From an uncultured virus (IMG/VR IMGVR_UViG_3300028920_001041) (Duplodnaviria; Heunggongvirae; Uroviricota; Caudoviricetes): 64,000 nt of DNA. How positions within the stretch are numbered: the first letter of the stretch is position 1; each line of letters opens with the position of its first letter. This document shows, in pieces, positions 3,459 through 61,734 of the stretch. The stretch lies in IMG/VR virus record IMGVR_UViG_3300028920_001041. One strand, 5' to 3'. The position numbers and the translations under genes were made by a program. The notes under the pieces were generated by a model that searched no databases, was not told the origin of the DNA, and was given only the letters and a program-made list of their open reading frames with translations.

Positions 3459-3884
3459 TTAGTTTTGCATATTATCTATCTCAGCTACTGTATCTTTAGT
3501 ATCTTCTTTTAGAGCTTTAAGCTTAGATACTTTGAATGTTTCTCTTACAACTATAACTGTGCCACCTAAAGAAACTGTAAAGGTGCACCATGCTATAAAC
3601 CCGTCCATTGCTACTTTAAAAAACTTAGTTACATCGGAAGCGGCAGTTGGATGTTTTATTACAAAATCCAAAAACTCATCTCGCATACCGAACAGTTTCC
3701 AAAGAAAGAACAGTGACGTTAATAATGGAAAGAAGAATATTAACATTTTCGCGGACGAGAAATTCTCTAGCATCTTCTTTATAAACGCTTTCCAATAAGG
3801 TAATAACAACCCATCTCTTCGTTCTTTACCCGACCGTCTTTCCTTACAACATACAGAAGTTTCTTGTTTATCTTGATCAGTCAT
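3459..3884 (-). CDS. membrane protein with 2 TM helices (holin-like candidate)
   Basis: hydrophobic LIFFFPLLTSLFFLW and FIAWCTFTVSLGGTVIVV; charged C-terminus; ERRSGKERR motif. Confidence 0.6.
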   Translation of the reverse strand: MTDQDKQETSVCCKERRSGKERRDGLLLPYWKAFIKKMLENFSSAKMLIFFFPLLTSLFFLWKLFGMRDEFLDFVIKHPTAASDVTKFFKVAMDGFIAWCTFTVSLGGTVIVVRETFKVSKLKALKEDTKDTVAEIDNMQN

Positions 3885-3977: not shown

Positions 3978-4679
3978 TCATATACTCTTCTCAGAAACGA
4001 ATGCTCGATTCTTTGGTGTCCAATTATTCAGGTTTTCGAAATCATTTTTGAGAATAGCATACATAATCCTATTGGTGTATTCTTTATATGCAGAACGACC
4101 CTTAAGTTGTTTTATAATATCTTCAGCAGCTTTCTTATCAATAGATCGACTATAATTTTTATCATATAGTTTTGGTGCGCCGTCGGCAAAATTTAGAACA
4201 AATGTAATATCTGGATATTTATCTAAAAACTTACCAAAGAAGTCGGCACTATGATTATCTACAACTATATTCATTTGCCAATGAGGATTCTCTTTATACG
4301 CATCAATAACTTTCTGATCTATCTCACTTTTAACAAAGGGAGAACTAACAGCATGTATATCAATTGATTTAATATATTCTTTAAATATTTCATGATATCC
4401 CTTTATGATAAATGTACCATTAGTACAAATTTCTACAGGAACACCAACAGTAGTAAAGAATCTTGACCAAAAGTTTCGAGACAATAGACCTGGTTCTCCT
4501 CCAGACACTACATGACTTGGAAAGAGATGTTTAATCTTTCTAACTTCTTTTAATATTAATTCTTCATTGAATGTATCACCACTATAGGAAATACAATAGG
4601 GGCATTCCCAATTACAGCTATTCAATAACCCTACACAGACATTGTCAATATATAAAGTTGATCCCATATAGTTGTCCAT
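3978..4679 (-). CDS. radical SAM protein
   Basis: CNWECPYC, SGGEP, CTNG. Confidence 0.9.
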   Translation of the reverse strand: MDNYMGSTLYIDNVCVGLLNSCNWECPYCISYSGDTFNEELILKEVRKIKHLFPSHVVSGGEPGLLSRNFWSRFFTTVGVPVEICTNGTFIIKGYHEIFKEYIKSIDIHAVSSPFVKSEIDQKVIDAYKENPHWQMNIVVDNHSADFFGKFLDKYPDITFVLNFADGAPKLYDKNYSRSIDKKAAEDIIKQLKGRSAYKEYTNRIMYAILKNDFENLNNWTPKNRAFVSEKSI

Positions 4680-4701: not shown

Positions 4702-5043
4702 TTAATACTTAGCTGATGCGAATGTCAATGTAATTGGATCAACACCATCATTTGAAACAAAGATATCTGTCGATTCTCCATCATAAGCAAAGAACTTCAT
4801 ATTAGAGAATTCAGGATTCGTTGTGTTTCCAACCTTGATTTTAAATGGTGAATCAGAAAAGATGACCATCTGATTGATATTTGACGCCAAATTATGATCC
4901 ACTGTTGGTCCAGGTAGATTTGCCTCGCCAGCTTCATGAGAAATAGGTTCATGCATAATCATATTATCCATAAACCTAGAGGTTTTTTGTTGATCTTCAT
5001 CAGTTAATACTACACTCACACTCGTCTTCAATGTTTTCGACAT
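4702..5043 (-). CDS. hypothetical beta-rich protein (possibly structural)
   Basis: AAGGAG RBS before ATG 5043 (MSKTLKT); the ORF-track extension to 5184 crosses a non-coding hairpin region. Confidence 0.7.
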   Translation of the reverse strand: MSKTLKTSVSVVLTDEDQQKTSRFMDNMIMHEPISHEAGEANLPGPTVDHNLASNINQMVIFSDSPFKIKVGNTTNPEFSNMKFFAYDGESTDIFVSNDGVDPITLTFASAKY

Positions 5044-5059
5044 TTTAATTCTCCTTGAT

Positions 5060-5087
5060 TTAATATTCAATGTTTTTGTAAAGAAAT
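5060..5087 (+). promoter_or_regulatory. variant copy of the phage early-promoter motif
   Basis: TTAATATTCAA-N6-TGTAAAGAAAT, same spacing as the copies at 52971 and 53664. Confidence 0.55.
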
Positions 5088-5097
5088 TAGTACAATA

Positions 5098-5191
5098 ATG
5101 GGGTTTGTAACCGAGCTCCAGAAATAATTTGATAATTTTTGGTTTGGATGAAGTCCCACATATAATTGGGGCTTCATCCATCATTTTTTTT
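5098..5191 (+). ncRNA. putative ~95-nt small RNA antisense to the late operon
   Basis: promoter motif upstream; hairpins GGGGTTTG/CGAGCTCC and GGATGAAGTCCC/GGGGCTTCATCC followed by a T tract; G-U pairs favour the + strand. Confidence 0.45.
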
Positions 5192-5461
5192 GTGACGGAA
5201 TCATCATCTCATAGGAAAGGATGCCTAATCAGGTCCACCACGCCCCGTTTAGACTAAAAAACTACAAAACGAATCATCCGCCAAGATATAATCGTGCGGG
5301 CGCATCGCTACGAGAGTACCTATTTGTGATCGCGCTTTCCGGGGGTGGCAAGCGCCCAGTGATCACACGAATTACCCGCACTTTGGATTAAATACTAAGG
5401 GCTGAGGACCCATCACATTTGGTCATGATCGCTCAGAATTTTAACCCGTAGCTTAATCCAA
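5192..5461 (-). ncRNA. putative ~270-nt multi-domain structured RNA, family unknown
   Basis: GC-rich intergenic region with nested helices TGGATTAA/TTAATCCA, CTGAG/CTCAG, GTGCGGGT/GCCCGCAC, TGTGATC/GATCACA, GCGCTT/AAGCGC, TGGCGGA/TCCGTCA; wobbles favour the - strand. Confidence 0.65.
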
Positions 5462-5962
5462 TTAAATATCACTTTCTCCTACATTAACTCCACTTTTCTT
5501 TGTTGATCGATCAATAACCGAGAATATACTATCATCATCACCAGGAGGTATTACTGTGGTGTCATCCTCGGTTAATACTTCTCGCCCTTCTCTAACAGAA
5601 TCAAGAGAAGTTAAAGGAGCACTTGGACGATTATCTTCGACCTCAGTTATCGCATCAACAGTCTTTTCCTCTACTTTCGGTGGAGCAGTAAATGCCGGTT
5701 TTGTTTCTCTAGTAAGATCCGGTCCTGCTGGTTTAACTGGAGGGACAATAGTAGGCCCAGGTGGTCTTACTGGTCCTGCAGTTACTTTTTGCGCTGATTG
5801 TATCTTCGCAAAGATAGTAGTAGCCATACTTGCTTCTTTAAACCCTGTAAAACTTGCAACATTCAATTTATTGAGAATCAATCCTGCTTCCTCGCCTGAA
5901 ATAATTAATTGAAACATTTGAGGTGTTGCTGGTGCCTGTTGTGTTTGATTATTTTCAACCAT
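5462..5962 (-). CDS. hypothetical protein with Pro-rich, probably disordered C-terminal part
   Basis: GGAGG RBS; 166-aa ORF. Confidence 0.75.
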   Translation of the reverse strand: MVENNQTQQAPATPQMFQLIISGEEAGLILNKLNVASFTGFKEASMATTIFAKIQSAQKVTAGPVRPPGPTIVPPVKPAGPDLTRETKPAFTAPPKVEEKTVDAITEVEDNRPSAPLTSLDSVREGREVLTEDDTTVIPPGDDDSIFSVIDRSTKKSGVNVGESDI

Positions 5963-6348: not shown

Positions 6349-6927
6349 CTATTCAACCCCTAATTTAATATTTTCAACTGCTTTGCGCAACTTCTCTCTA
6401 TCTCCATCTAATTTCTTTTCTGACTTTTCTTTATCTTCCTCTAATTCTCGTGTGAATTTAAGAAACGTTTCTTTATTTTTATTCAATTGATCTCTAACAA
6501 AGTCAAGAGATCTTTTTAATTCATCACGTTCATCAAGAAGAATCTTCTTTTCAATTGCACGAGCAGATGCACGGGTTATACCTGGAATCTGTACAGGTTT
6601 CTCTAAATAGTCGTAAACGTCTATCGAGCCAGCTTTCTTAAGACTATCAATATTTGGTCTAGCAGTAATAATTATAATCTGGATATTGTTATCTTTCTTT
6701 TTAGCATATTGTGCGACAGTCATACCGTCAAAAGCACTTCCTGGTTGTAAATATATATCTGCTATTACTAAATCAATATCCTCTTCCTCAACAGTCTGTA
6801 TTGCACTACGATAATCCAAAGATGTGAGAACTCGATACTCTTCTCTTTCTAGTGTCATTCTAAATAGTTCGACGACTTCCGGTTCATCATCAACTACTAA
6901 GACACCTGGTAACTTTATTGGGTCCAT
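6349..6927 (-). CDS. response regulator (receiver domain plus coiled coil, no HTH)
   Basis: VVDDE, IADIY (phospho-Asp), IITA, YLEKP. Confidence 0.9.
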   Translation of the reverse strand: MDPIKLPGVLVVDDEPEVVELFRMTLEREEYRVLTSLDYRSAIQTVEEEDIDLVIADIYLQPGSAFDGMTVAQYAKKKDNNIQIIIITARPNIDSLKKAGSIDVYDYLEKPVQIPGITRASARAIEKKILLDERDELKRSLDFVRDQLNKNKETFLKFTRELEEDKEKSEKKLDGDREKLRKAVENIKLGVE

Positions 6928-6929
6928 AA

Positions 6930-7526
6930 CTATTCCTCATCCCGTCTTTGGATAGATTTCACTGCATCGACAAGTTTAGATCTTACACTGGTCATCTTAC
7001 TATTAAGGTCTTTTTGATGATCAACTAACTTCTGAGCCATACTTAAATAATCATCATCTTTGACATTACACTCATCACCCGCTGCTAATTGTGCAATAGC
7101 TTCTTCGAGTTTCGTTTGAGACTCTTTATTAGCCTTCTCTAATTTACGTTGCTCTGTGAGTAACGTTTTTCTTTCTACTGCACGATTACAGATTTGAAGA
7201 AGAGTGTCACGACTAACTGGCTTTGTAAGATAATCAGTTGCTCCATATCGTAGGGCTTGTTGACTTGATTCAACAGTAGGTTCTCCAGTCATCATGATTA
7301 CTAATGTATCTGGACGAGCATCTTTAATAGCTTTTAATATTTTTAAACCACTAATTTTAGGCATCAATATATCTAGAAATACAACATCATAATCTTGTTT
7401 ACCAATAAATCCTTTTGCTTCTCCCCAATTTTCAGCAGTATCAACAACATGCTTTTGCTTTGAAAGAATCGATTTAAAAGAAAATCGTATCGATCTCTCA
7501 TCATCGACAATTAACACTTTTGCCAT
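6930..7526 (-). CDS. response regulator (NtrC-type receiver plus coiled coil, no HTH)
   Basis: IVDDE, FLDILMP, MMTG, YLTKP. Confidence 0.92.
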   Translation of the reverse strand: MAKVLIVDDERSIRFSFKSILSKQKHVVDTAENWGEAKGFIGKQDYDVVFLDILMPKISGLKILKAIKDARPDTLVIMMTGEPTVESSQQALRYGATDYLTKPVSRDTLLQICNRAVERKTLLTEQRKLEKANKESQTKLEEAIAQLAAGDECNVKDDDYLSMAQKLVDHQKDLNSKMTSVRSKLVDAVKSIQRRDEE

Positions 7527-7538
7527 AATATAAGCTCC

Positions 7539-9353
7539 TTAGAGATGAACAGCTTTTGGAAGATCAATAGTGAATTTAGTCCATTTCCCTTCCTCACTCT
7601 CTATTCTGATTTCACCTTTATGATCTTTTATGATGCCATAACTAATTGAAAGGCCTAATCCTGTACCAAAGTCTGGTCTCTTTGTTGTAAAGAATGGTTC
7701 AAATATTCTTTTTATTGCATCTTTAGGTATACCAGGCCCGTGATCTTTAAAGATTAATCGTAAATATTTATTATGTTCGCTAACTTTAATATCAATAATC
7801 TTATCAATCTCTTCGATATTAGGATACTTTTCATTTAATGCATAAATAGAATTACTCATTAGATTAAGAAGAACTTGTTGTATCTGTGATTTGCTGCACA
7901 TAATCATTTCTAAATACTCAGGTATATCAATATCAAGAGAAACTCCATGTTTCTTTAGATTTGCTTTAAACAAAGCTACAGAATCTAATACTACTTCTTT
8001 AATATCATTTGGAGTTTTATCTACTTCCTCTCTCCTAGCAAACGCAAGAAGATTCTTAACAATCTTAGCAATCCTATTCCCTTCTCTAACTATTTCGTTT
8101 CCATACCCATATTCTTCAGAGTTCGCCATTAAAATGTCTTTAAGAAGTTCACCATAAGTGATAATTCCTGTGATAGGATTATTAATTTCATGGGCAATTC
8201 CGGCAGCCATTTCTCCAAGAGAAGAAAGTCTTTGACTTTCGGCAAGTTGCTCTTGAATCTTATGGCGTTCTGTGATGTCACGTATTACTCCACGAAAACC
8301 AACAGGATTACCATCTTTTGATCTTTTAATAAATATACTAGACTCAATATGTCTTATTTCATCTTGCCCTTTAAACTTCCAATGAATATTTCTTAAATCT
8401 TGATTCATCTTATATGCATTCACAAATATTTGTTTTAATACATCAGCAGTTTTAACAGGAAAGAAATCAGTGAACTTCTTGCCTAAAATCTTATCATCAT
8501 TGAAATGAAATATAGTTAACGCTGCAGTATTTACAAAAGTGAATTTACCTTTTAAATCAACTTCATAATACCCCTCATCAGTGTTCTCGATAATCGTTCT
8601 ATATTTCTCTTCACTTTCTCGTAATTGCTCCATTGCTTCTTTATAATCTGTTACATCAGTAAAAGAATAAATATATCCTTTCTCTGACCGAACTCTATCA
8701 ATCATATTACCTATTAAAATGCAAGGAACACGTTGTCCGTCTTTATGAAGAAATTCATGCTCTAATACAACCTGACCCTTCCTATGAAACTGACTTCTTA
8801 CTTCATTATTAACTTTAATGAATTCAGCTTTATCTTCATACAAAAATCTAGACCTATATCCTACTACTTCATTAGGTTTATATCCGAGAATCTTGGTCAT
8901 AGATTCATTGCCCCAACGATTCTTATCGTTTTGCACAAAACAAATACCATGGCTTGTCGTATTGAGAACTGCAGATAACAATTCTTTGGTTCCTTCATTT
9001 TCTTCAAATTGCGACTGAAGTTTACTCTCTTTAAGCCCAAATTCTATAATAAATATTCCTAACATCAAGAATAGTACGGCAAATAAGAATCCGGCAAAGT
9101 CTTGAACATATTGCTCTAAATCGCTGCTACCTAATTTGACAAACTTATTAAATGCATCAAAATGGTAACTTACTTCAACTGCCGCGCCAAATACTATGAG
9201 ACATACACCAATGATAATATTTCTAACCTTTTGTTGTCTTAGGTTCTTTACAATTTTAATTAAATACAATATTATAATGAGCATGAATAAATAATTAGTG
9301 TATTCTAAGATCACTTTTGTCATTACTATTGTCCCACTGTCGATGTTAACCAC
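7539..9353 (-). CDS. membrane PAS-PAS sensor histidine kinase (NtrB-like)
   Basis: 3 TM segments, two PAS/PAC regions, H box AGIAHEINNP, N box QVLLNLMSN, DHGPG, FEPFFTTK, GTGLGL. Confidence 0.95.
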   Translation of the reverse strand: MVNIDSGTIVMTKVILEYTNYLFMLIIILYLIKIVKNLRQQKVRNIIIGVCLIVFGAAVEVSYHFDAFNKFVKLGSSDLEQYVQDFAGFLFAVLFLMLGIFIIEFGLKESKLQSQFEENEGTKELLSAVLNTTSHGICFVQNDKNRWGNESMTKILGYKPNEVVGYRSRFLYEDKAEFIKVNNEVRSQFHRKGQVVLEHEFLHKDGQRVPCILIGNMIDRVRSEKGYIYSFTDVTDYKEAMEQLRESEEKYRTIIENTDEGYYEVDLKGKFTFVNTAALTIFHFNDDKILGKKFTDFFPVKTADVLKQIFVNAYKMNQDLRNIHWKFKGQDEIRHIESSIFIKRSKDGNPVGFRGVIRDITERHKIQEQLAESQRLSSLGEMAAGIAHEINNPITGIITYGELLKDILMANSEEYGYGNEIVREGNRIAKIVKNLLAFARREEVDKTPNDIKEVVLDSVALFKANLKKHGVSLDIDIPEYLEMIMCSKSQIQQVLLNLMSNSIYALNEKYPNIEEIDKIIDIKVSEHNKYLRLIFKDHGPGIPKDAIKRIFEPFFTTKRPDFGTGLGLSISYGIIKDHKGEIRIESEEGKWTKFTIDLPKAVHL

Positions 9354-10029
9354 TTTTTGTTACTCCCGCTAATTCGAATATATTCCCTAGCACCACTCTA
9401 TTTTTAGGAATATGTAGTTCGCCACCTTCAATTACTTTCATAAAGTCGAACTCATATGCGGTTATAACACTTTTGACTTGACCAAATATCAATATAGACT
9501 CAAGCTGTGCATTGATTGAGATGTCTATTGAGTTCATTTCCCCTATGAATATATTAGAAAGAAAATCCACTTTTAATGTAGGTTTCTTTCTAAACTTTTG
9601 AATTACTCTAACTAAGAATGATTTTTTAATTCTTAAATCTTTAATATTTTTTTTACAGACAACAATCTGATTAGCACAATAATCATTAATTTCATTTATC
9701 AAATCTAATGTGAATATTTCTTCTCCCCTCGCTAAATATGAATTTAATAAGGTTCGAAGTATTGTTTGAACAGAGGATCTAATTTTTCCCTCGGGTGGGT
9801 CTGTATATCCAGTCTCATCATAAAGTCTTCTTTTCTCTGGATGCTTTAAGAGAGTATAAGCTTCATTAATAGCATCATATTTTTCTTCCGCATCAGCTTT
9901 TACATCTTCACTTTCAGTAGCAACTTTATCAGGATGGTATTTTTGTATTAATTCTCTATATATTCCTCTTAGATCTTCTTGTTTAACACTGCTATCAACA
10001 CCTAATACATCATACGGCGTTTGATCCAT
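9346..10029 (-). CDS. J-domain (DnaJ-like, class C) protein
   Basis: PYDVLGV...KYHPDK...AINEAYTLL...RRLYD. Confidence 0.9.
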   Translation of the reverse strand: MDQTPYDVLGVDSSVKQEDLRGIYRELIQKYHPDKVATESEDVKADAEEKYDAINEAYTLLKHPEKRRLYDETGYTDPPEGKIRSSVQTILRTLLNSYLARGEEIFTLDLINEINDYCANQIVVCKKNIKDLRIKKSFLVRVIQKFRKKPTLKVDFLSNIFIGEMNSIDISINAQLESILIFGQVKSVITAYEFDFMKVIEGGELHIPKNRVVLGNIFELAGVTKSG

Positions 10030-10056
10030 TACTATTTTCCTTCCGGACAAAGAATA

Positions 10057-49709: not shown

Positions 49710-49720
49710 TATATAGAAAT
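49710..49720 (+). promoter_or_regulatory. putative phage early promoter core TATATAGAAAT
   Basis: one of 11 intergenic copies in the right arm. Confidence 0.75.
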
Positions 49721-49827
49721 AATGTTATCAGTTAGTCACAAAAGGTAATACAAAGATTTTATTACTTGTGCGACATAAACCCTATTCGTAGGGTTTATGT
49801 TTGCCCTAAATATGAAAGGAGAATTAG

Positions 49828-50184
49828 ATGGATCTATTATTTCAGCAGTTTTCGTTATACCCAACAATGTTAATTAGTATGTTTGGTATTGACATGTTAC
49901 GGGCAAGACCTAAAGAAGACTTCAAAACATTAGAAGCGAATAGTAAAAAAGTGTGTTTCATTGAATTCGCTACTTTCCCTTTAGCAGGAGAATCAATGGG
50001 ATTAGGATTATTACTTGATATTGAAGGTGCGAGAGTAATTCCAGCATTTATGCGATTTCAAATAATGGATGATGGTGAATATATATTACTTCAATATATA
50101 GAGATAAAAGATGAAGAATATAGAGATAAATTCAATGGGGATTTTAGATCATCTATGGGCGAAGTATTAAGGGAAATAGAATAA
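49828..50184 (+). CDS. hypothetical protein
   Basis: AAGGAG RBS; 118-aa ORF. Confidence 0.75.
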   Translation: MDLLFQQFSLYPTMLISMFGIDMLRARPKEDFKTLEANSKKVCFIEFATFPLAGESMGLGLLLDIEGARVIPAFMRFQIMDDGEYILLQYIEIKDEEYRDKFNGDFRSSMGEVLREIE

Positions 50185-50187
50185 TAA

Positions 50188-50226
50188 TATAGACCGTCAT
50201 TTGGCGGTCTATAATCTTATTTTTAA
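50188..50226 (+). terminator. intrinsic terminator
   Basis: TATAGACCGTCA-TT-TGGCGGTCTATA followed by a T-rich tract. Confidence 0.7.
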
Positions 50227-50232
50227 TTATTA

Positions 50233-50243
50233 TATATAGAAAT
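50233..50243 (+). promoter_or_regulatory. putative early promoter core
   Basis: TATATAGAAAT just after a terminator. Confidence 0.75.
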
Positions 50244-50297
50244 TAATGTTATACGACGATATATAATCGTCGCAACTCGACTTAGAGAGGAGAGACT

Positions 50298-50339
50298 ATG
50301 TGTAAAAACTCAAAAGTATCGAAAGGAAACGGAAGATAA
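50298..50339 (+). CDS. possible 13-aa peptide MCKNSKVSKGNGR
   Basis: GAGAGGAG RBS inside a promoter-to-T-tract cassette. Confidence 0.35.
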   Translation: MCKNSKVSKGNGR

Positions 50340-50433
50340 TATGTTACACATAAGAGATTCGGAACAAATCAAGGTATCGAACCTCTTATTATCGCGTTTT
50401 TTTTGCCCTAAAAATTTAGTTTTTTTGACTCAA

Positions 50434-50444
50434 TATATAGAAAT
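50434..50444 (+). promoter_or_regulatory. putative early promoter core
   Basis: TATATAGAAAT about 60 bp before ORF 50504. Confidence 0.75.
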
Positions 50445-50503
50445 AATATACTCATAGTACACAATCATGTGTATTATAACCCCAACTTAAAAAGGAGAGA
50501 GCA

Positions 50504-51100
50504 ATGTTTGAACCTACGATTCTAATAAGTACTGTCTATAAACTTTTAGCAGGTGTAGGTGGAATAGGACTATCAACCTATGCAGGAAGACAATTGATAC
50601 TTCTAACGGCTATGGAATTCGATGATAAATTCAGTGCCTTTAAGGATGCCGAAGAAGATAAAATCAATCAAGCCATTAAAGCCGGCAAGAAAGGCAAAGA
50701 CCTTCGCAAGATAAAATCAAAGGTCAAGAAAGCAATTAGCGCCGAGAAGAAACGCCTCATTCAACTTAAGATCTCAGAAAAAGGGATCAAAGCAATGTTG
50801 CGTAAACTACGGAAAGCAGGCGATGATAATGCTGCCGACAATCTTAGCAAGTTCGCTAAGAAACACGGCACGAAAGCGACTAAAACTGCGAAAGAAGCAG
50901 AAGTCGTGCCTGATGAAGAGACGACATCTGTCGACTCTGAAGAAGGTAAGAAAGCGGCACCAGCGAAAACGGCCGAAACTTCAGATTCGAAGCCTGCCGC
51001 TAAAACTGCAGAATCCAAGTCAAAGAAGAAACCTGCCAAAAAAACAACTGTCAAAAAACGTGGCCCTGGCCGCCCAAAAACATCGGGCGCCACAGCTTAA
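50504..51100 (+). CDS. Lys/Ala-rich protein with N-terminal hydrophobic segment and AT-hook-like tail
   Basis: AAGGAG RBS; KKPAKK...KKRGPGRPK; histone-H1-like composition. Confidence 0.8.
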   Translation: MFEPTILISTVYKLLAGVGGIGLSTYAGRQLILLTAMEFDDKFSAFKDAEEDKINQAIKAGKKGKDLRKIKSKVKKAISAEKKRLIQLKISEKGIKAMLRKLRKAGDDNAADNLSKFAKKHGTKATKTAKEAEVVPDEETTSVDSEEGKKAAPAKTAETSDSKPAAKTAESKSKKKPAKKTTVKKRGPGRPKTSGATA

Positions 51101-51113
51101 CGACTTAGATATC

Positions 51114-51155
51114 ACCCGGGTGGTTTATCCACCCGGGTTGGATATTGTTTATTTT
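51114..51155 (+). terminator. intrinsic terminator
   Basis: ACCCGGGTGG/CCACCCGGGT stem followed by a T-rich tract. Confidence 0.7.
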
Positions 51156-51169
51156 AGAAAGGAGAATAT

Positions 51170-52108
51170 ATGATCTTCGATAAAGTTTGTCGGGTTGCTG
51201 AAAGAGCAATGCCTGACTTGGCAAGCATGTTAAGTAAATCGAAATTGTTTTGGTTTGATGGAAAACCACATGAATTCTTACCAAAGGAAATCACTGATAA
51301 AGACATGGAGTTCCTTTCTGAACAATTTATGCTACCCTTCCCCATTGTGGCTATTGAAGACGTGGGAAGCTTAGTTATTCTATACGATTTAGACCCTGGG
51401 ATTAGAGGTATAAACACAAAAAGAGGATTTATTGACGTCACTAGAATGGAAACTGACATATCTGCATATGACGATGCAGATAAAGTTAAAGAACAGAAAT
51501 ATCAAAAAGCTTGGGAAAAAGCTGGTATGGCAAACAAAGATCCTATGACAATTTCTTTCGGGGTAATTCATGAAGTAAAATTCATAAATAAGGAAGACTT
51601 TTACACAATCGGATCAGTACATCGAATAGTCCAGGCTTGTGCAAAAGCACGAGATGATGATATCATTTTTGTGGACTACTGTGATCCTGTGCAAATGCGT
51701 GAATTAGGACAAAAAGTTGTTGATAATCATTTAAGAGCTATGTTAAAAAATGCGATGTGTGCAATGCAAGAAGTATTGTACGCAAACACACCAAATAAGT
51801 TTATCTTAGAAGAGTCTCCAGTAAATCGTAGACCTGCAAGAAGAGGAAAGCTATCAAGGTCAAATGATAGACCAGTCTACACATTACTTAAACCTGGGCA
51901 AATTAGATCTAAAATGGAAATAACTGAATCATCAGACGGCGAAAAACAAACTCGGTTATTCCTCGGAAGAAGAGCCCACCCGAGAACATACCATGACCCA
52001 CGGTATGTTAACATGCAGGGGAAGACGGTTATGATACCTGCTGTTTGGCCCGGAGAAAATACTAAAATTGTTGGAGCCAAGCGTTATAAGGTAATGCTTG
52101 ATTTATAA
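51170..52108 (+). CDS. hypothetical phage protein
   Basis: AAGGAG RBS; C-terminal RRAHPR...W motif. Confidence 0.8.
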   Translation: MIFDKVCRVAERAMPDLASMLSKSKLFWFDGKPHEFLPKEITDKDMEFLSEQFMLPFPIVAIEDVGSLVILYDLDPGIRGINTKRGFIDVTRMETDISAYDDADKVKEQKYQKAWEKAGMANKDPMTISFGVIHEVKFINKEDFYTIGSVHRIVQACAKARDDDIIFVDYCDPVQMRELGQKVVDNHLRAMLKNAMCAMQEVLYANTPNKFILEESPVNRRPARRGKLSRSNDRPVYTLLKPGQIRSKMEITESSDGEKQTRLFLGRRAHPRTYHDPRYVNMQGKTVMIPAVWPGENTKIVGAKRYKVMLDL

Positions 52109-52119
52109 GGAGGAGATAT

Positions 52120-52395
52120 ATGTCAACAGAAAAGAAGATATTTGAGGCTACAAGAATAGCTATAGACAAAGTAGATAAAAAAGATAGATTTCTTACATTT
52201 CAACCAGAGAGGGATAAAATTCTTACACTTGATTTAAAAGAAGTAAAGCGTATAGAGTGTAACCCAGAAAAGAAAACTATTTTCATCAATGATGATTTAT
52301 TTGTGTATTTTCCTGGACTAAATTTGGATATCAGCTTTGCTGATTATTATGCCCAGTTGGTAGGTGCCTGGGTTAAATTTAAACACCGAGTTTAA
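52120..52395 (+). CDS. hypothetical protein
   Basis: AAGGAGG RBS. Confidence 0.75.
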   Translation: MSTEKKIFEATRIAIDKVDKKDRFLTFQPERDKILTLDLKEVKRIECNPEKKTIFINDDLFVYFPGLNLDISFADYYAQLVGAWVKFKHRV

Positions 52396-52397
52396 GA

Positions 52398-52434
52398 GGG
52401 GGGGATCCTATTAAGTAGGATCCTTCCACATTTT
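52398..52434 (+). terminator. intrinsic terminator
   Basis: GGGGGGGATCCTA/TAGGATCCTTCC stem. Confidence 0.65.
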
Positions 52435-52440
52435 CATTAA

Positions 52441-52451
52441 TATATAGAAAT
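52441..52451 (+). promoter_or_regulatory. putative early promoter core
   Basis: TATATAGAAAT after a terminator. Confidence 0.75.
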
Positions 52452-52497
52452 TGTACTAATGAATCTACTTTTTATTTTTATTAACAGGAGAATCAAT

Positions 52498-52974
52498 GTG
52501 GAATTATATACATTTGAAGAAGTAAGAGATAGGGTGAATCATTTCATTAACGTTGTTAAAAAGAATGGGGAATGGGATGTTATACTTTATGAGATGCTAA
52601 CCGCTGAGTTTAAGAATTATTATACACCTAATATTCCATATGATTATAATCAACCATATCAATCCCAAGATTGTAAGATCTATATTAAGAACGGCACATT
52701 TGAAATTGAAATATGTCAAAATATTGAATCCGTATATCCCACTGTTAATGTATTTCAAATAGATGGTACATCAAACCCAGATCAGATAGATACAATATCT
52801 ATGAGAGAATGGTTATATGTTTACTCTAACCCAGAAGGAATGACTCTATTAGAAAAAGTAGAATTCACAATTGAAAACACAGATTGGCAACAATTAGATG
52901 AGGAAAGAAGAAAAAGGTTAGGGCAGGGGATGAGACCAGATGATATTGAATACGATGATGATATTCCCTTTTAA
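52498..52974 (+). CDS. hypothetical protein with SSB-like acidic C-terminal tail (YDDDIPF)
   Basis: AGGAG RBS, GTG start; ends PDDIEYDDDIPF. Confidence 0.75.
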   Translation: MELYTFEEVRDRVNHFINVVKKNGEWDVILYEMLTAEFKNYYTPNIPYDYNQPYQSQDCKIYIKNGTFEIEICQNIESVYPTVNVFQIDGTSNPDQIDTISMREWLYVYSNPEGMTLLEKVEFTIENTDWQQLDEERRKRLGQGMRPDDIEYDDDIPF

Positions 52975-52998
52975 TATTCAACACGATTATATAGAAAT
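52971..52998 (+). promoter_or_regulatory. putative early promoter (extended motif)
   Basis: TTAATATTCAA-N6-TATATAGAAAT. Confidence 0.78.
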
Positions 52999-53029
52999 TA
53001 GAGTTATAAACATTAATTCTGGGAGGATT

Positions 53030-53422
53030 ATGAAAACTAATGAAGACTATTGTAAAGATATGTTAATCGGTATTTTTAAGAGGTTAAATCAGTTACCCAT
53101 GAAAAGGTCTACGGATTGGATAATGGAGATTATCAAAGAACGTGTCGAACTAAACATCGACATATTTAAAAATGCTGAATTAACTATAAAGTTGTGCGGC
53201 AAGAATATTGCAGACTTAGAAAGGCTCCCTGAAGCACGAAGAAACTCAGATTTCGGGGTATCTCTATTGCGAGAAAAGTTTGGCAGTATTATTCATTTAA
53301 TGGGTAATCCTGACAACGAATACCAGAAAGGAGGTGGTGGGGATAAGTTTGCCAAAACTAAAAAAGAAATTGAAGACCTGGCTAGAGGAGAACAACAAAG
53401 TAATAATGGCGAAGGAGATTAA
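53030..53422 (+). CDS. hypothetical protein
   Basis: GGGAGG RBS before ATG 53030. Confidence 0.72.
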   Translation: MKTNEDYCKDMLIGIFKRLNQLPMKRSTDWIMEIIKERVELNIDIFKNAELTIKLCGKNIADLERLPEARRNSDFGVSLLREKFGSIIHLMGNPDNEYQKGGGGDKFAKTKKEIEDLARGEQQSNNGEGD

Positions 53423-53627
53423 GCGTGTCACTAAGGGAGGATATGCTATTCTCGTATCAAAAGGATCTCGATCACAAGAGATCCTTTTTAGTCAAGGCCA
53501 CCAAATAGTTGCTGTGCAAGTTGCATTTAGATTAGGCTGGTTTAAGCCTATGAGATGCGGTTCGCATAATGAAACTATATATGGTTTCGAATATGGAGAA
53601 AATCGCGAGAAATATTTGCGATTTTAG
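53406..53627 (+). CDS. hypothetical protein
   Basis: ORF overlapping the upstream gene, followed by a terminator. Confidence 0.5.
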   Translation: MAKEIKRVTKGGYAILVSKGSRSQEILFSQGHQIVAVQVAFRLGWFKPMRCGSHNETIYGFEYGENREKYLRF

Positions 53628-53629
53628 TG

Positions 53630-53665
53630 ATGCCCGGAGCAATCCGGGCATACAACTCTTTTTTT
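53630..53665 (+). terminator. intrinsic terminator with GCAA tetraloop
   Basis: ATGCCCGGA-GCAA-TCCGGGCAT followed by a T tract. Confidence 0.75.
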
Positions 53666-53691
53666 AATATTCAAGAATTTCATATAGAAAT
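53664..53691 (+). promoter_or_regulatory. putative early promoter (extended motif)
   Basis: TTAATATTCAA-N6-CATATAGAAAT. Confidence 0.78.
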
Positions 53692-53699
53692 AGTGTTAA

Positions 53700-53890
53700 C
53701 ATAGATAGGGTGGATACATTTTTTATGTTTCCACTTTACTATCCTAGGGGGCTTTTAGCTTCCTCCGGCGTGATTATCTAATATCTTCGGATGTTAGGTG
53801 ATCAGGTTAAGTCGGTTCGTCTGCCCGAACAGGGGGACGTTGGTGAATATATCTTCGGATATGTTCACCAACGCCCTTCTGTTTGCAGTA
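53700..53890 (+). ncRNA. putative ~190-nt structured RNA with two cUUCGg-capped long hairpins
   Basis: own promoter, no ORF; TGATTATCTAATATC-TTCG-GATGTTAGGTGATCA and AACAGGGGGACGTTGGTGAATATATC-TTCG-GATATGTTCACCAACGCCCTTCTGTT. Confidence 0.7.
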
Positions 53891-53899
53891 AAATTAGTT

Positions 53900-53927
53900 T
53901 TAATAATTAACCTTTTTATATAGAAAT
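53900..53927 (+). promoter_or_regulatory. putative early promoter (extended motif)
   Basis: TTAATAATTAA-N6-TATATAGAAAT. Confidence 0.75.
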
Positions 53928-54087
53928 AATTAATACATAAAGTTCGAACTTTACGAGGGCCATTCAAATATCCTCGGAAAGAGTCTATTTTAGGCTGTTT
54001 TCTACAAAGCGGAAGGGGAGTGTTTTTGTAAACATTAGATAATATACGGGTACCTATGAGCCTAAAACTAAAAGCTAAAGGAGAATC

Positions 54088-54552
54088 ATGTTTACTGAAA
54101 AGGAGATCGAATTTCTAAAAACCTTGGTATTTACTGATTTAAATCTTAAATATACAGGGGATAGTATTGAATCACTATTAAATTGTGGATATATTAACTT
54201 CAATATTCCCAGAGAAGACGTAATATTTAGGAGAACTCTTCTCACCAAGTTGATGTCCGCTAAAATTAGAACCCACGACAATAGGCCTTCTCCACCATCT
54301 ATATTCAGTCCGGGAGTAGTTCCTAATGCTGTCAACAAAGCTAAAAAGCTTACTGCTGCTCAGATTAATATAATAGCAGGATTGATTATGGAACAAAAGA
54401 AGCTCGAGGCTATTAAAATGTTTCGAACTTACACTGGATTAGGTTTAAAGGATGCGAAGGAGTTTATGGACTTGTTTATTCCAATGGGACATACACCAAG
54501 CAACTTCTCGTATATTAGTGCGTCAAACGCATTCTCGGATATATGTGTATAA
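54088..54552 (+). CDS. protein with ribosomal L7/L12 C-terminal-like domain
   Basis: KKLEAIKMFRTYTGLGLKDAKEFMD; AAGGAG RBS. Confidence 0.8.
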   Translation: MFTEKEIEFLKTLVFTDLNLKYTGDSIESLLNCGYINFNIPREDVIFRRTLLTKLMSAKIRTHDNRPSPPSIFSPGVVPNAVNKAKKLTAAQINIIAGLIMEQKKLEAIKMFRTYTGLGLKDAKEFMDLFIPMGHTPSNFSYISASNAFSDICV

Positions 54553-54562
54553 GGAGATCAAT

Positions 54563-55087
54563 ATGAAGGGTAATCCAATTCCATTTGCTAGGACCTTTCT
54601 TTGGCTAACATGCGAAGAAGATGGTCTTCAAAAAGTTGAACAATTTCAGGGGCAAACATTACTCAAAGCAATTATGTTGCAATTTCAGCATAACCATAGT
54701 TTTATATGTTGGATTGATGATGATTTTGAGAAAGGGATTTCTATTACCGAGAAAGCAGAGATGACGCTTTCTAGATTAGAGAATGGAGATCATGAGATAC
54801 CTATCATTATTATGGATATCACCAACTCGGTTAATCCTTATAGTAAGGTTATTGATCCTATAATAATATTCCCGTCTGATTCTCGAAAACATGAATTCGA
54901 CGATAGCTTCATCGGTTATCAATATGTCATTGATGCTTATATTAAAGCAAATGAAGAAGATGATCAAATCAAATTCAATAGCTTGCAAGAAGCTAAAAAC
55001 GAAGCAAACAATCTTCGGGCAATACAACCTGAAAATATTTATAGAGTTAGAAATGTAACAATACAAGAAGATATTGTTACAACTTGA
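54563..55087 (+). CDS. hypothetical protein
   Basis: AAGGAG RBS before ATG 54563. Confidence 0.72.
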   Translation: MKGNPIPFARTFLWLTCEEDGLQKVEQFQGQTLLKAIMLQFQHNHSFICWIDDDFEKGISITEKAEMTLSRLENGDHEIPIIIMDITNSVNPYSKVIDPIIIFPSDSRKHEFDDSFIGYQYVIDAYIKANEEDDQIKFNSLQEAKNEANNLRAIQPENIYRVRNVTIQEDIVTT

Positions 55088-55123
55088 CCTATTATTATTT
55101 ATCAAGCAGTTGGGAGGCTGATA

Positions 55124-55163
55124 GGGGATAGTCTTGTACTATCCCCAACCTATTTTTCTTTTT
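55124..55163 (+). terminator. intrinsic terminator
   Basis: GGGGATAGT/ACTATCCCC stem followed by a T tract. Confidence 0.7.
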
Positions 55164-55189
55164 AATATTTATAAGTAATATATAGAAAT
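55162..55189 (+). promoter_or_regulatory. putative early promoter (extended motif)
   Basis: TTAATATTTAT-N6-TATATAGAAAT. Confidence 0.75.
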
Positions 55190-55237
55190 ATATAATATAC
55201 ACAATTGACTTTTTGATTAATTAGAAAGGAGAATAGC

Positions 55238-55528
55238 ATGGAGAGATCAAGACAACAATTAATTGATGCACTTGACAAAATGATTTCAATAAGCAAAGCG
55301 AGAGAAATAGATTTTTCAGGTTGCGCATACTTGGAATTTAGAAACCCAGTTGTATCTGGAGATGATTTCGAGAATATTGATGTAACAACTATCCTTGTTC
55401 CTCTGTCAGAAATGAGCTGTGGTTTTGAGGGACGTGAAGTAATTTTACAAAAAGAGAAATTCTTAGACGGTGGGAACAAACCAATCTCAACGTTCAAAGA
55501 GGTATTTTCTTTTAAGGAGATTGCATGA
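55238..55528 (+). CDS. hypothetical protein
   Basis: AAGGAG RBS. Confidence 0.72.
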   Translation: MERSRQQLIDALDKMISISKAREIDFSGCAYLEFRNPVVSGDDFENIDVTTILVPLSEMSCGFEGREVILQKEKFLDGGNKPISTFKEVFSFKEIA

Positions 55529-55695
55529 AATTAATTATCCGATATAAAGATCCGATTCCTATCAAAATGAGACAGTTATATGAAAGAGCATTCAAAGTAG
55601 CATTTGGAGATTGTGTCATTTCTTGGTGGAATCTTAAAGTAATTCGAATAGCAAACATTAAAAATATGGACATCGAGATTCAAGAAGATGATTAA
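55525..55695 (+). CDS. 56-aa hypothetical protein (not in the ORF track)
   Basis: AAGGAG RBS, ATGA overlap, MKLIIRYKDP...QEDD. Confidence 0.65.
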   Translation: MKLIIRYKDPIPIKMRQLYERAFKVAFGDCVISWWNLKVIRIANIKNMDIEIQEDD

Positions 55696-55933
55696 AAAAA
55701 TTGATAAACATTTTGAAGAATTCTGTTTGTTTAATACATGGGTTATAATGCGATGCGTAGTCGCCTTTGCTCCAAATCACCCATGGTATTACAATCGTCC
55801 TACTCTTGATGGTTGGTTCAAAAATAGCACCCCGTTAAACATTAGAATGAGTCGTATAATTACATTCGGTTTAATAATATCTTGGGAATTGATTATATTT
55901 ATAATAGTTAAAATAATAAAGGGTGGAATATGA
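55688..55933 (+). CDS. small membrane protein
   Basis: C-terminal hydrophobic helix; overlaps both neighbours. Confidence 0.6.
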   Translation: MIKKIDKHFEEFCLFNTWVIMRCVVAFAPNHPWYYNRPTLDGWFKNSTPLNIRMSRIITFGLIISWELIIFIIVKIIKGGI

Positions 55934-56439
55934 CAACTTGGTTTTCAGCAGATTTACATCTTGGTCACGCAAACATTATATGGAGATGCAATCGTCCGTA
56001 TAAGAATATACACAAGATGCAAACTAATTTAATAAAGAACATTAATAACATCATACAAGTCAAAGATAAGTTTATAATAATCGGTGACTTTTCAATGTAT
56101 GGTGTTGTTCAAAAGCATATTGTGAAACAAATTCGAGAACAAATTAATTGTCGTAGTATAATATTAATATTAGGCAACCATGATGCATTATATCCTTTCG
56201 ACTACACAGATTTCTGTGGTTTTGAATCCGTTCATACTAGATTAGAATACGAAGGATTTATATTAAATCATGATCCTGGGAAAGCCTATGAGGAACCCAA
56301 TAAGGTATGGTTAACAGGTCATGTACATACTCATTGGAAAACTCAAAGAAACTGCATCAATGTAGGAGTCGATGTTCGTGATTATTGCCCTATACATATC
56401 GATTCAATCTATCAAATAGTAAGAGGACTAGACATGTGA
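55930..56439 (+). CDS. calcineurin-like metallophosphoesterase
   Basis: ADLHLGH, GDF, GNHD, NH, GHVH, NVGVD. Confidence 0.92.
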   Translation: MTTWFSADLHLGHANIIWRCNRPYKNIHKMQTNLIKNINNIIQVKDKFIIIGDFSMYGVVQKHIVKQIREQINCRSIILILGNHDALYPFDYTDFCGFESVHTRLEYEGFILNHDPGKAYEEPNKVWLTGHVHTHWKTQRNCINVGVDVRDYCPIHIDSIYQIVRGLDM

Positions 56440-56933
56440 AAAGACCAACAGATCGTCAAATTCGTAAATACGCACATATGATTATTGAACGAGCGAAAGG
56501 TGATCCTATTGTTCTCGAAGATATATTTAATGATATTCTTCCTGGGATTGTATATGAGTCATTTTTCATGAATACCACATCAGGAGGATCAACTAAAAAA
56601 CATCAATATCAAAAGAGAGATGACGGGATATTAAAATTCAATATTAGTAAGGAAGCCGCTAAAAAAGCTAAAATTAATCCGTATCATAGACAGGAGTATA
56701 CAGTCTATGTTGCTAACTATTATGAACTAAGTGAAAGATTACCACCTATCGAAATTGATAGTCCTCCAATAGATCAAGAGGATGGATATATTATGACTAA
56801 AATTCTGATCCATTCGAGACCTAGCGCAAAACATAGAAAACAATTCGAGATATTTGGATTCTTGAGAGTATTGACGAAATTAGATCCTGATGTACTATTA
56901 AGGATAGAAGGGCGGATGTTAGCACACGCATGA
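56436..56933 (+). CDS. hypothetical protein
   Basis: GAGG RBS; GTGA overlap with the upstream stop. Confidence 0.65.
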   Translation: MKRPTDRQIRKYAHMIIERAKGDPIVLEDIFNDILPGIVYESFFMNTTSGGSTKKHQYQKRDDGILKFNISKEAAKKAKINPYHRQEYTVYVANYYELSERLPPIEIDSPPIDQEDGYIMTKILIHSRPSAKHRKQFEIFGFLRVLTKLDPDVLLRIEGRMLAHA

Positions 56934-56967
56934 TTAAATCAAAAGTCAAAATCTTTAGGGAGGAAAA

Positions 56968-57621
56968 ATGACCAACAATAATAAACCGCATGACTATCTC
57001 TTAACTTTTTGGTTTACCGGTGAACAAGATGTTGAACATTTAATATCCAGAGGTCTCAATGAAGAAGAGGCTTTACAATTAGCAGAAGAGATTAGAGGAG
57101 AGCTTCCAGAAAATATTAAGATTGAGAAGGTATCAGATATTCCTAAAGTTACAACCAAAGAAATAACTATACAGGAAATTATGAAGACTAGCTTCTCAAA
57201 TGATCATTTAAGAAACTCAATTAACTTATTTGAGATCATGATTATTCAACAAAAAGTAACTCTCGAAAAGTTTCTTGAGATCTTTTCCCCATATGGATAT
57301 TATAGAGGAGGGGACGATAAAAGATCAACTGTGACCACTATTAATTTTAATTACTTTGACCAACCAACAAACTTTGAGTTTAAGATGACTGATTTTGGAT
57401 TCAGATATCTTCCAAAAAAGAATCCTCCTTTTGGTCATGATATTCATCGTTATGATATGGTGTCTCAAAGTATTGGTACTCTTCATAAGAATAAAAGAAA
57501 GATTGTATTTAAAACGCCAAAAAAAGAAGAGATCAATTTCTTAGATTTCTTAATGGAAACCAGAAAACTAATACCTGACTTTCCCATTCGATTGGAGAAA
57601 GTTATGATATCATGTTTATAG
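56968..57621 (+). CDS. hypothetical protein
   Basis: GGGAGG RBS. Confidence 0.75.
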   Translation: MTNNNKPHDYLLTFWFTGEQDVEHLISRGLNEEEALQLAEEIRGELPENIKIEKVSDIPKVTTKEITIQEIMKTSFSNDHLRNSINLFEIMIIQQKVTLEKFLEIFSPYGYYRGGDDKRSTVTTINFNYFDQPTNFEFKMTDFGFRYLPKKNPPFGHDIHRYDMVSQSIGTLHKNKRKIVFKTPKKEEINFLDFLMETRKLIPDFPIRLEKVMISCL

Positions 57622-57627
57622 GGGATT

Positions 57628-57987
57628 ATGTTCATGATAGTTATCTTTGAAGCGATAGATCTAATCACAGGAAATAATGATAAGCCGATGAAAGAATTAG
57701 GTACCAAGCATTTACAAACAGCGAATTGGAAATCATTAAGTCAAAGCAGATCATCATTCTTAATAAAGAAGGGGGAAATGAAGATTCTCAAAGAACGTGA
57801 AACTATAAAAATGAGAATAGATGGATACGAAATAGAAGAACTATTCTGGTATTTATATCACAAACTTCGGCGAGAACATAATATCTCTATTCCTTCAACA
57901 ATATTACATTTGGCTAACGAATTAAATTCAAAACAAATCGAAATATTAATTAAACAATTGGAAGCAAAGGCATTCGCAAAAATATGA
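57628..57987 (+). CDS. hypothetical protein (start uncertain, possibly 57778)
   Basis: ORF within an operon; ATGA overlap with the next gene. Confidence 0.55.
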   Translation: MFMIVIFEAIDLITGNNDKPMKELGTKHLQTANWKSLSQSRSSFLIKKGEMKILKERETIKMRIDGYEIEELFWYLYHKLRREHNISIPSTILHLANELNSKQIEILIKQLEAKAFAKI

Positions 57988-58400
57988 ATTATCTACAAGA
58001 TTTATGTCATATATTTCACGGCTCATTAACTCCAGAACATTGCTTTACTAGAAACGTGTTGAATAGGATATCTATATATATGTATCCTAGTAAAATAATA
58101 AATACTCAAATAATTAAACAAAATGATAAAATTGTCAAAGCGATTGAATATTCAACTAAGGTTCAGACTGTTAAGTTCCCTGACATTAAATTAAAGCATT
58201 GTTTTCTGCAACCTGACACTGAATACCATGCAAGAACAATCTTTTATCATGATGGAAGTTGTGGTGTTAGATTATACAGAAATAAAGATTGGAAAATCGA
58301 CCGACCAAAAACGGATCTGCTTAACTTTCTAACACAATTAACAATAATCGACAACCAAGTAATTCTTAACTTTGAGAAGTTAATATTCCAACATATTTAG
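57984..58400 (+). CDS. hypothetical protein
   Basis: operonic ORF; C-terminus (LLNFL..L) resembles those of neighbours 56436 and 56968. Confidence 0.65.
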   Translation: MNYLQDLCHIFHGSLTPEHCFTRNVLNRISIYMYPSKIINTQIIKQNDKIVKAIEYSTKVQTVKFPDIKLKHCFLQPDTEYHARTIFYHDGSCGVRLYRNKDWKIDRPKTDLLNFLTQLTIIDNQVILNFEKLIFQHI

Positions 58401-58408
58401 GAGGAGAG

Positions 58409-58627
58409 ATGACAGCAAGAATTAGTATGCTCTATGTTATATTAGAAAAAGATGTTCGTATAGATGAGATAGACAAACTTGCAGATGCAATAGCACAATT
58501 TAATAATGTTTTAGAAGTTAAAACACACATTAAAGAAGCAACTGAAGACATTGCTCAAGATCGAGCAAAACATGAGCTTAGTCAGAAATTATTAGAAGTA
58601 TTATATCCCATAAAGGAGAAAATTTGA
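58409..58627 (+). CDS. hypothetical protein
   Basis: AGGAGG RBS. Confidence 0.72.
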   Translation: MTARISMLYVILEKDVRIDEIDKLADAIAQFNNVLEVKTHIKEATEDIAQDRAKHELSQKLLEVLYPIKEKI

Positions 58628-58938
58628 ACCTATTTGAATACATGGATAAGCATAGTTTGACATCGATATTCTTGATAATTCCTATTGCTGGATTTATCTT
58701 AACAGTTGCTCTATTAATACTTGAAAAAATTATTAATAATATATTTCAAATACCACGATTATATATGCGACATAAAACTATAAGGAAAGTGGGGTGGCCA
58801 CCTTATAATAATATGGACGCAGACGGCGATATAATGACAATAGACGATGAAGAAGAAGGAGACAAAATTGTTGATACTAATAGACGACCAGATGATCTCG
58901 ATGGTTCATCAGATCATAAGAGACAATCCGAAGGATGA
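58624..58938 (+). CDS. small membrane protein with acidic tail
   Basis: AAGGAG RBS, TTG start, one TM helix, GWPP...DADGD. Confidence 0.68.
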   Translation: MNLFEYMDKHSLTSIFLIIPIAGFILTVALLILEKIINNIFQIPRLYMRHKTIRKVGWPPYNNMDADGDIMTIDDEEEGDKIVDTNRRPDDLDGSSDHKRQSEG

Positions 58939-59176: not shown

Positions 59177-59178
59177 TT

Positions 59179-59730: not shown

Positions 59731-59744
59731 GGGGGGAACAGCCT

Positions 59745-60362: not shown

Positions 60363-60373
60363 GGAGATTAAAT

Positions 60374-61004: not shown

Positions 61005-61009
61005 AGTAG

Positions 61010-61456: not shown

Positions 61457-61486
61457 AGGGTGTGAATTCATTCCAACGGAGGTAAT

Positions 61487-61690: not shown

Positions 61691-61693
61691 TCA

Positions 61694-61734
61694 GGAGTGT
61701 AGCGCTCGTATGCTACACTTCACTTTTTATTTTT
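61694..61734 (+). terminator. intrinsic terminator
   Basis: GGAGTGTAGC/GCTACACTTC stem followed by a T tract. Confidence 0.72.

Follow-up and report, generated by a model that had tools for sequence, protein, structure and literature searches.

The 418-nt gap between two minus-strand genes of what looks like a huge sediment phage harbors a conserved, uncatalogued structured RNA. This RNA is real, and it is a modular hairpin array, not a 270-nt pseudoknotted machine. Its hairpins, here called D1, D2 and D3, form a new RNA family of narrow distribution, known so far from four related genomes. We demonstrate its structures, its strand, its position, its conservation through compensatory changes and its absence from Rfam. 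The first-pass annotation had proposed a novel structured RNA at this place, and that proposal stands: the fold is strand-specific, the pairing is maintained in relatives and Rfam 15 holds no family for it. Huge sediment phages are almost unexplored at the RNA level, and the gap provides a compact case in which RNA structure was kept while sequence drifted at the synonymous rate, and in which the gain and loss of modules reveals the core part, D2. We regard the finding as solid and its reach as moderate, given a narrow family with a putative function.

Strand-specific fold of the gap

Throughout the text "the window" denotes the whole stretch of DNA that was analysed, 64 kb in length. It is AT-rich (overall GC 0.336) and looks like part of a phage of about 306 kb from marine-sediment metagenomes: a contig of 306,383 nt encodes the window's own 113-aa protein, and a 1204-aa ORF in the window is similar to distal tail fibres from large Vibrio, Aeromonas and Erwinia phages. 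The minus strand carries nearly all genes from 0.4 to 49.5 kb, and the label "late operon" previously given to this block is plausible. The features of the gap and its borders are listed below in the direction of minus-strand transcription.

5462 to 5962, minus strand: upstream 166-aa gene, from the ORF list and its translation; its stop codon (5464-5462) ends 1 nt before D1
5383 to 5461, minus strand: D1, an irregular hairpin of 79 nt, with fold z -4.32 and an ortholog in L003
5293 to 5382, minus strand: D2, the core module in all four genomes, from covariance-model (CM) orthologs and covariation
5192 to 5284, minus strand: D3, a hairpin of 93 nt, with fold z -3.25 and an ortholog in L005
5145 to 5191, plus strand: intrinsic terminator, from a terminator scan and inverted repeat I1, outside the structured RNA
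5079 to 5087, plus strand: promoter-like box TAAAGAAAT, one base off TATAGAAAT, pointing towards the plus-strand terminator
4702 to 5043, minus strand: downstream 113-aa gene for a hypothetical viral protein, whose strong ribosome-binding site is AAGGAG

The gap extends from the stop of the upstream ORF (5462-5962, minus strand) to the downstream start codon, an ATG at 5043. This start is fixed by ten homologs of the downstream protein (113-121 aa, 60-100% identity), so that the 160-aa ORF of the program-made list is too long. The neighbours of the 113-aa protein in the Atlas are viral, and it has no Pfam, PHROG or PDB match; the 166-aa protein has no Pfam or PHROG match. A coding role of the gap itself was considered and rejected, as neither the plus-strand ORF at 5221-5391 (56 aa) nor the small minus-strand ORFs are conserved in relatives.

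In 100-nt windows the GC content of the island in the gap is 0.44-0.52, with a peak of 0.56 at 5261-5440. The island had been described as filling the gap, which holds for 5192-5461 and fails for 5044-5191, where the plus-strand terminator and the promoter and ribosome-binding-site region lie. The minus strand of 5192-5461 folds with a minimum free energy of -94.8 kcal/mol (z -3.91; none of 200 shuffles as good), versus -67.5 kcal/mol for the plus strand (z -0.28; 86 of 200 as good). Three nested-helix domains are predicted on the minus strand, in agreement with the earlier reading of the letters, and D1 and D3 folded alone (z -4.32 and -3.25) were each matched by 0 of 200 shuffles. Because the GC island coincides with a strand-specific fold beyond that of shuffles, we consider the element at 5192-5461 real and its coordinates good.

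Known families do not account for it. In the comparison with Rfam that had been proposed, no Rfam 15 family reached its gathering score anywhere in the 64-kb window, and nothing matched the orthologous RNAs of the relatives L003-L005; in E-value mode over 4900-5700 its seven matches, at 14.7-17.1 bits against thresholds of 40-100, are noise. ARAGORN found no tRNA or tmRNA gene in the window, and together with the negative Rfam 15 search this upholds the remark that the RNA matches none of tRNA, tmRNA, RNase P, SRP and 6S. Among GenBank phages there was no close DNA homolog of the 418-nt gap and no relative of the 166-aa or the 113-aa protein, and in the IMG/VR subset searches with exact and gapped RNA patterns and with four flanking proteins returned nothing related; the single IMG/VR match (L001) is a chance one inside a high-GC coding region. 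Twelve loci that match the D2 pattern in species genomes have folds that, by reading, lack the D2 architecture, and were rejected as chance matches for that reason. The sequencing-run contigs (X2-X5) are all identical to the window and contributed no variants, joints or ends, and BLAST with +1/-1 scoring matched the window itself alone; homologs of the RNA are detectable only by CM or by synteny. A limited full-text search of the literature found nothing relevant.

Modules and their orthologs

From 10 cluster representatives of the 113-aa protein (60-100% identity) in a large protein collection we built a profile (A1) that retrieved nine metagenome loci (L002-L010), of which L010, a partial match of 32 residues, was left out of the comparison. 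L002 is identical to the window. The identity of the 113-aa protein to that of the window is 90-91% in L003-L005, 62-64% in L006-L008 and 45% in L009. The equivalent slot in L003-L005, located by the conserved C-terminal coding sequence of the 166-aa gene, was taken from this conserved end of the upstream gene to a run of eight A residues (A8) followed by a hairpin. Its contents differ: the window holds D1, D2 and D3, L003 holds D1 and D2, L004 holds D2 only, with a 12-nt remnant of the 5' arm of D1, and L005 holds D2 and D3. The first module starts 1-13 nt past the stop codon in all four close genomes. The first-pass annotation had described a single multi-domain RNA of ~270 nt; since relatives carry D2 alone, D1 with D2 or D2 with D3, the 270 nt are not one obligatory unit, and D2 is, judged by these sequences, the core module.

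The first helix of D2 (P1) is GUGCGGG/CCCGCAC and its helices P2-P4 covary; the hairpin has a C-rich apical loop (CCCC) and a 3' bulge carrying ACUC(U)C. A CM made from the window D2 and its predicted structure only (R1), searched with filters off over 93.6 kb, found exactly three D2 orthologs, in L003-L005 (33.3, 26.7 and 24.7 bits; E 1.4e-5 to 1.9e-3), with the next-best match at 14.8 bits (E 0.53), and D2 is present in four of four close genomes: the window (= L002), L003, L004 and L005. The alignment of these four sequences (A6) was fitted to the model structure. Of its 104 cells 96.2% pair, and double changes are seen in 12 of the 26 pairs; no column shuffle out of 500 was as good, and structures slid by 1-3 columns had at most four double-change pairs. 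Pairwise identity in D2 (59.6-72.8%) is close to the third-codon-position identity of the adjacent gene (64.0-70.2%), so the sequence evolves nearly neutrally while the structure is kept. The stems contain G-U pairs, and the refined D2 model scores 11.7-11.8 bits on the opposite strand versus 72-93 bits on the minus strand; both observations argue that selection acts on a minus-strand RNA and not on DNA. The sole invariance that stands out is that of P1 (UGCGGG/CCCGCA, with arms of 7 nt), on both strands. Overall, 32 of about 90 columns are invariant. With neutral identity near 65% in four genomes, we estimate that chance alone would leave roughly 40% of the columns invariant, so the conservation of 4-6-nt motifs is not significant.

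D1 consists of an outer stem, a GGG/CCC helix, a UAAAAUU loop and a CUGAG/CUCAG helix, and its ortholog at 3668-3746 of L003 has a matching architecture (z -3.53). In a consensus made by RNAalifold without fitting, the two sequences share 15 pairs, two with double and five with one-sided changes. D3 is built from a P1 of 7 bp, a UGAU/UGAU loop, a P2 of 11 bp, an internal loop of a U-rich strand opposite UCCUUUCC, and a P3 of 10 bp that carries a GUGGUGG loop. Its ortholog at 3701-3792 of L005 scores 42.4 bits (E 4.4e-8) with model R3. D1 and D3 are each known from two genomes. The CM alignment of D3, fitted like that of D2 to the model structure, has 98.2% of its 55 cells paired and double changes in 7 of 28 pairs, five of them within P2; seven of 500 shuffles were as good, and slid structures had at most two double-change pairs.

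The D3 model picks up the D2 copies of L005, L003 and L004 weakly (22.5, 18.1 and 14.0 bits), and the D2 model matches the window D3 end to end (13.4 bits) and leaves the D3 of L005 unmatched. From this mutual recognition, D2 and D3 may be old duplicates with a common basal part. Neither has a second copy in the 64-kb window or in the about 30 kb of its relatives.

The slot of the more distant loci L006-L009 holds extra small ORFs. In L006, L008 and L009 it contains one long hairpin with a U run behind it (z -3.6 to -5.0; 3484-3600, 186-300 and 3470-3580, respectively; closing stem of 12-16 bp) and then a small ORF beginning MIS.., and this hairpin looks like a terminator or 3'-end structure. 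On the other side of the 113-aa gene, the 233-aa radical SAM gene that lies just downstream of it in the window (3978-4679 (-)) is absent from that place in L003 and L005, where a gene of 141/142 aa directly follows the 113-aa gene; the difference is an insertion or deletion in a plastic region.

Functional interpretation of the modules

Our best explanation, held tentatively, is that D1-D3 are structure-dependent 3'-UTR/intercistronic elements that would stabilise or process the end of the upstream mRNA. The modules would be transcribed with the upstream 166-aa gene, in its 3' untranslated or intercistronic part; their rod-like hairpins, with about 20-25 stacked pairs, would block 3'-to-5' exonucleases and could be processing sites for a double-strand-specific (RNase III-type) enzyme; and such sites would set and shield the 3' end of the upstream mRNA and decouple it from the following gene. 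A number of modules that varies from one to three would fit a generic, additive function. That the modules are cleaved or stabilising we infer from their position after the stop codon, their specificity for the gene strand, their rod-like shape (about two or more turns), their variable number and the hairpin of the distant relatives, all of which favour a 3'-end role. The duplex expected of an RNase III site or stabiliser, at least about 20 bp of coaxial irregular helix on the mRNA strand between cistrons, is found in D3 (7 bp, a 4x4 loop, 11 bp and 10 bp) and in D2 (26 pairs in P1-P4). If the modules define mRNA ends, they offer a way into the question of how phages of this kind cut and stabilise transcription units about 50 kb long.

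In phage T7, RNase III hairpins lie between the cistrons of polycistronic mRNAs, and the upstream message is protected by the hairpin that stays at its 3' end. Like these sites, the modules are irregular hairpins with an internal loop and about two helical turns, placed between genes on the gene strand. They differ in having no sequence or Rfam relation to them, in their larger size (79-93 nt, with three or four helices), in standing up to three in tandem and in that their cleavage is a prediction. Several points speak against the 3'-end role: a simple hairpin would suffice for a plain stabiliser and the modules are elaborate; the invariant P1 of D2 hints at sequence-specific recognition; the tandem G-A UGAU loop by the basal helix suggests a specific partner; the comparison covers four genomes, with two each for D1 and D3, and its CM alignments follow the model structure; and no canonical minus-strand terminator or known RNase site was found.

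The second and third of these points lead to an alternative that we consider unlikely, in which the array would be a regulatory RNA, either a small RNA derived from the 3' UTR or a sponge for protein or RNA, whose C/U-rich motifs would bind Shine-Dalgarno regions or a protein. The CCCC loop and ACUC(U)C bulge of D2 and UCCUUUCC of D3 complement the most strongly enriched Shine-Dalgarno 5-mers before 97 ORF starts of the window (GGGAG 8, AGGGG 7, GGGGA 9, AAGGA 21 and AAAGG 20 occurrences, each 12-16 times expectation), and the counterpart of UCCUUUCC in the D3 of L005, UCUCCUUUCC, is also a Shine-Dalgarno complement. These C/U-rich motifs sit in loops and bulges while the stems covary, and the invariant P1 and the UGAU/UGAU loop would suit a specific partner. 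The motifs of 4-6 nt are, however, not significantly conserved in the four genomes, L003 and L004 lack D3, and an own promoter or terminator was not seen. No target emerges either, since complements of the D2 and D3 motifs in the window form no telling pattern (GGGAGTA, for instance, occurs seven times there, patternless). RsaE and RoxS are base-pairing sRNAs with C-rich loops, and the modules share with them unpaired, C-rich, Shine-Dalgarno-complementary motifs on stable hairpins; they differ in having no Rfam match, no promoter or terminator of their own and no target, and with four sequences their motif conservation is not significant. A more specific form of this idea, which strikes us as improbable, is a processed riboregulator whose stable hairpins would display anti-Shine-Dalgarno segments like the 16S tail (UCUCCUUUCC, ACUCCC, CCCC) together with the G-A loop, and would titrate the Shine-Dalgarno regions of selected mRNAs, from host or phage, or bind a dedicated protein of either. 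If the modules are riboregulators they would represent a new class of phage RNA, and in this more specific form translation control would be tied to the adjacent phage-encoded two-component system.

Somewhat less probable than a regulatory RNA in general are selfish or cassette-like hairpins, in the manner of REP/MITE elements or of T4-type stem-loop cassettes, that would lodge behind genes of a plastic region and have no dedicated phage function. Modules have been gained and lost among phages whose flanking protein is 90% identical, an arm of D1 persists as a remnant in L004, D2 and D3 look like diverged copies in that the D3 model picks up D2, and the slot is hypervariable (with the extra ORFs of L006-L009 and the radical SAM gene missing from L003 and L005). 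Against such mobility speak the finding of only one locus in the 64-kb window and about 30 kb from relatives, the orthologous position with pairing kept across divergence of synonymous level, the G-U pairs and strand asymmetry, which indicate selection at the RNA level and not at the DNA level, and the lack of a transposase nearby. REP/BIME elements are short palindromes, highly repeated genome-wide, that are mobilised by RAYT transposases and stabilise upstream mRNA. The modules are like them as GC-rich hairpins directly after stop codons whose number varies between relatives, and in the predicted stabilisation at the RNA level; they are unlike them in occurring at one locus in the about 94 kb searched and in having no RAYT-type transposase nearby.

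It is improbable that the modules end transcription of the upstream operon as leaky or unconventional terminators. The slot of L006, L008 and L009 does contain a long hairpin with a U run, and UUAUUUUUU follows the D2 of L005 and AAUAUUUU that of L003, so that the U tract after D2 reads as good in L005 and moderate in L003. It is poor in the window and in L004, however: D2 and D3 of the window and D2 of L004 lack a U tract, a scan of 5044-5461 found no intrinsic terminator on the minus strand, and the modules are far more elaborate than terminator hairpins.

Least probable is a single RNA of ~270 nt, held together by a pseudoknot and a k-turn and acting as a ribozyme, riboswitch or other cis-regulatory sensor. 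The three domains are adjacent, and a cofactor sensor would be at home in an operon with many radical SAM genes; the modules nevertheless occur separately, neither the window nor the relatives have a match to an Rfam ribozyme or riboswitch, and the array sits upstream of a plus-strand terminator and a promoter-like box and not in a clean 5' leader. The pairing of loops that the first-pass annotation had read as a possible pseudoknot exists in the window as complementary words (GCCACCCCC at 5349 and GGGGCGTGGTGG at 5246), and the duplex of the D2 and D3 apices there reaches -19.4 kcal/mol versus -14.6 +/- 2.6 kcal/mol for shuffles, a marginal excess (4% of 500 as good). It is not kept in relatives: in L005, where the D2 apex has no CCAC, the apex-apex duplex (-10.7 kcal/mol; 72% of shuffles as good) is in another register and uses stem nucleotides, and L003 and L004 have no D3.

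The kink-turn-like element fared similarly. The TGAT/TGATGA words are present and flank a helix, at the P1/P2 junction of D3, where they form a symmetric 4x4 UGAU/UGAU internal loop in which tandem G-A pairs are possible. A k-turn has a three-nucleotide bulge and then tandem sheared G-A/A-G pairs between a canonical and a non-canonical stem; the UGAU loop of D3 and D2 is like it in its tandem G-A/A-G next to a G-C helix and differs in being symmetric, with one nucleotide instead of three before the GA and no 3-nt bulge. The loop occurs in D3 of the window and in D2 of L003 (as UGAU/UGAA), L004 and L005, and is absent from D2 of the window and D3 of L005, such that exactly one module per genome (four of four) has it, beside a GCGG(G/A) helix.

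There is no sign of a ribozyme or of a ligand-sensing element, and cis-regulation through the downstream gene has a predicted effect of nil: opening its Shine-Dalgarno sequence costs 1.74/0.89, 2.82/2.21, 1.52/1.54 and 1.58/1.37 kcal/mol in the full versus the short transcript of the four genomes, and with differences of at most 0.85 kcal/mol with versus without modules we rejected sequestration. In this the modules differ from T4 gene e, where read-through transcripts sequester the Shine-Dalgarno sequence in cis, as they leave the predicted accessibility of the downstream ribosome-binding site unchanged in four genomes. Further architectures were considered and set aside. An ENE-like triple helix between the U-rich loop of D3 and the A8 run would have to span about 18 pairs, the run lying at the base of P1, and the run is also present where D3 is absent; for hammerhead, HDV-like, type III antitoxin-repeat and translational-bypass elements, by reading, core motifs are unconserved or the gene context is missing.

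Flanking elements and genomic surroundings

The plus-strand terminator below D3 is a 14-bp hairpin (5145-5180) with a T run to 5191. Read on the minus strand, 5145-5191 is the A8 run and then a hairpin, with no U tail. This pair of features is kept in L003-L005 with different stem sequences, and in L006-L009 it terminates a small opposite-strand ORF. In L002-L005 the box TAAAGAAAT precedes the ATG of the 113-aa gene by 36-53 nt and lies on the strand opposite to that of the gene. As box and terminator keep their place in L002-L005, a short plus-strand transcript is possible, a candidate RNA of about 100 nt with no ORF from 5079-5191 (+); the arrangement is kept in L003-L005 and encodes a small opposite-strand protein in L006-L009. 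For the related word TATAGAAAT we counted 14 occurrences in the window (in the range 49712-63505 and elsewhere), where 3.2 would be expected. Nine of them, all on the plus strand, precede plus-strand genes at 49.7-61.8 kb, a distribution suggestive of a phage promoter motif. At 1169, 2222 and 2547, three other copies each overlap the start codon of a small minus-strand gene beginning ATGATTTCTATA.

Directly upstream of the RNA, at 6349-10050 (-), lie genes for a DnaJ-domain protein, a PAS histidine kinase of 604 aa and two receiver-domain proteins that have coiled-coil-like tails and in which no output domain is recognised. The link between the RNA and these signalling genes that had been suggested comes down to their adjacency. 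We considered ANTAR-type RNA-binding response regulators and rejected them, as the two upstream regulators have only a receiver domain by Pfam and their tails read as charged helices.

Radical SAM domains match in at least 15 ORFs at 3978-38112 (-) of the window, one of them with SPASM, a concentration that is extraordinary for a phage. Between them lie genes that are CMP-KDO-synthetase-like, KDO8P/DAHP-synthase-like, GDP-mannose-dehydratase-like and transaldolase-like, and nucleotide-sugar genes belong to the same block.

Two minor features lie elsewhere in the window. A GC-rich tandem direct repeat at 58-134 (period 34, 2.3 copies, 97% matches) sits in an island of 0.58 GC at 21-210, with no fold signal on either strand, and could be iteron- or binding-site-like. 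The ORF at 54088-54552 (+), of 154 aa, weakly matches ribosomal protein L7/L12 in its C-terminal domain (E 4.5e-6; 27.3 bits against a cut-off of 25.9).
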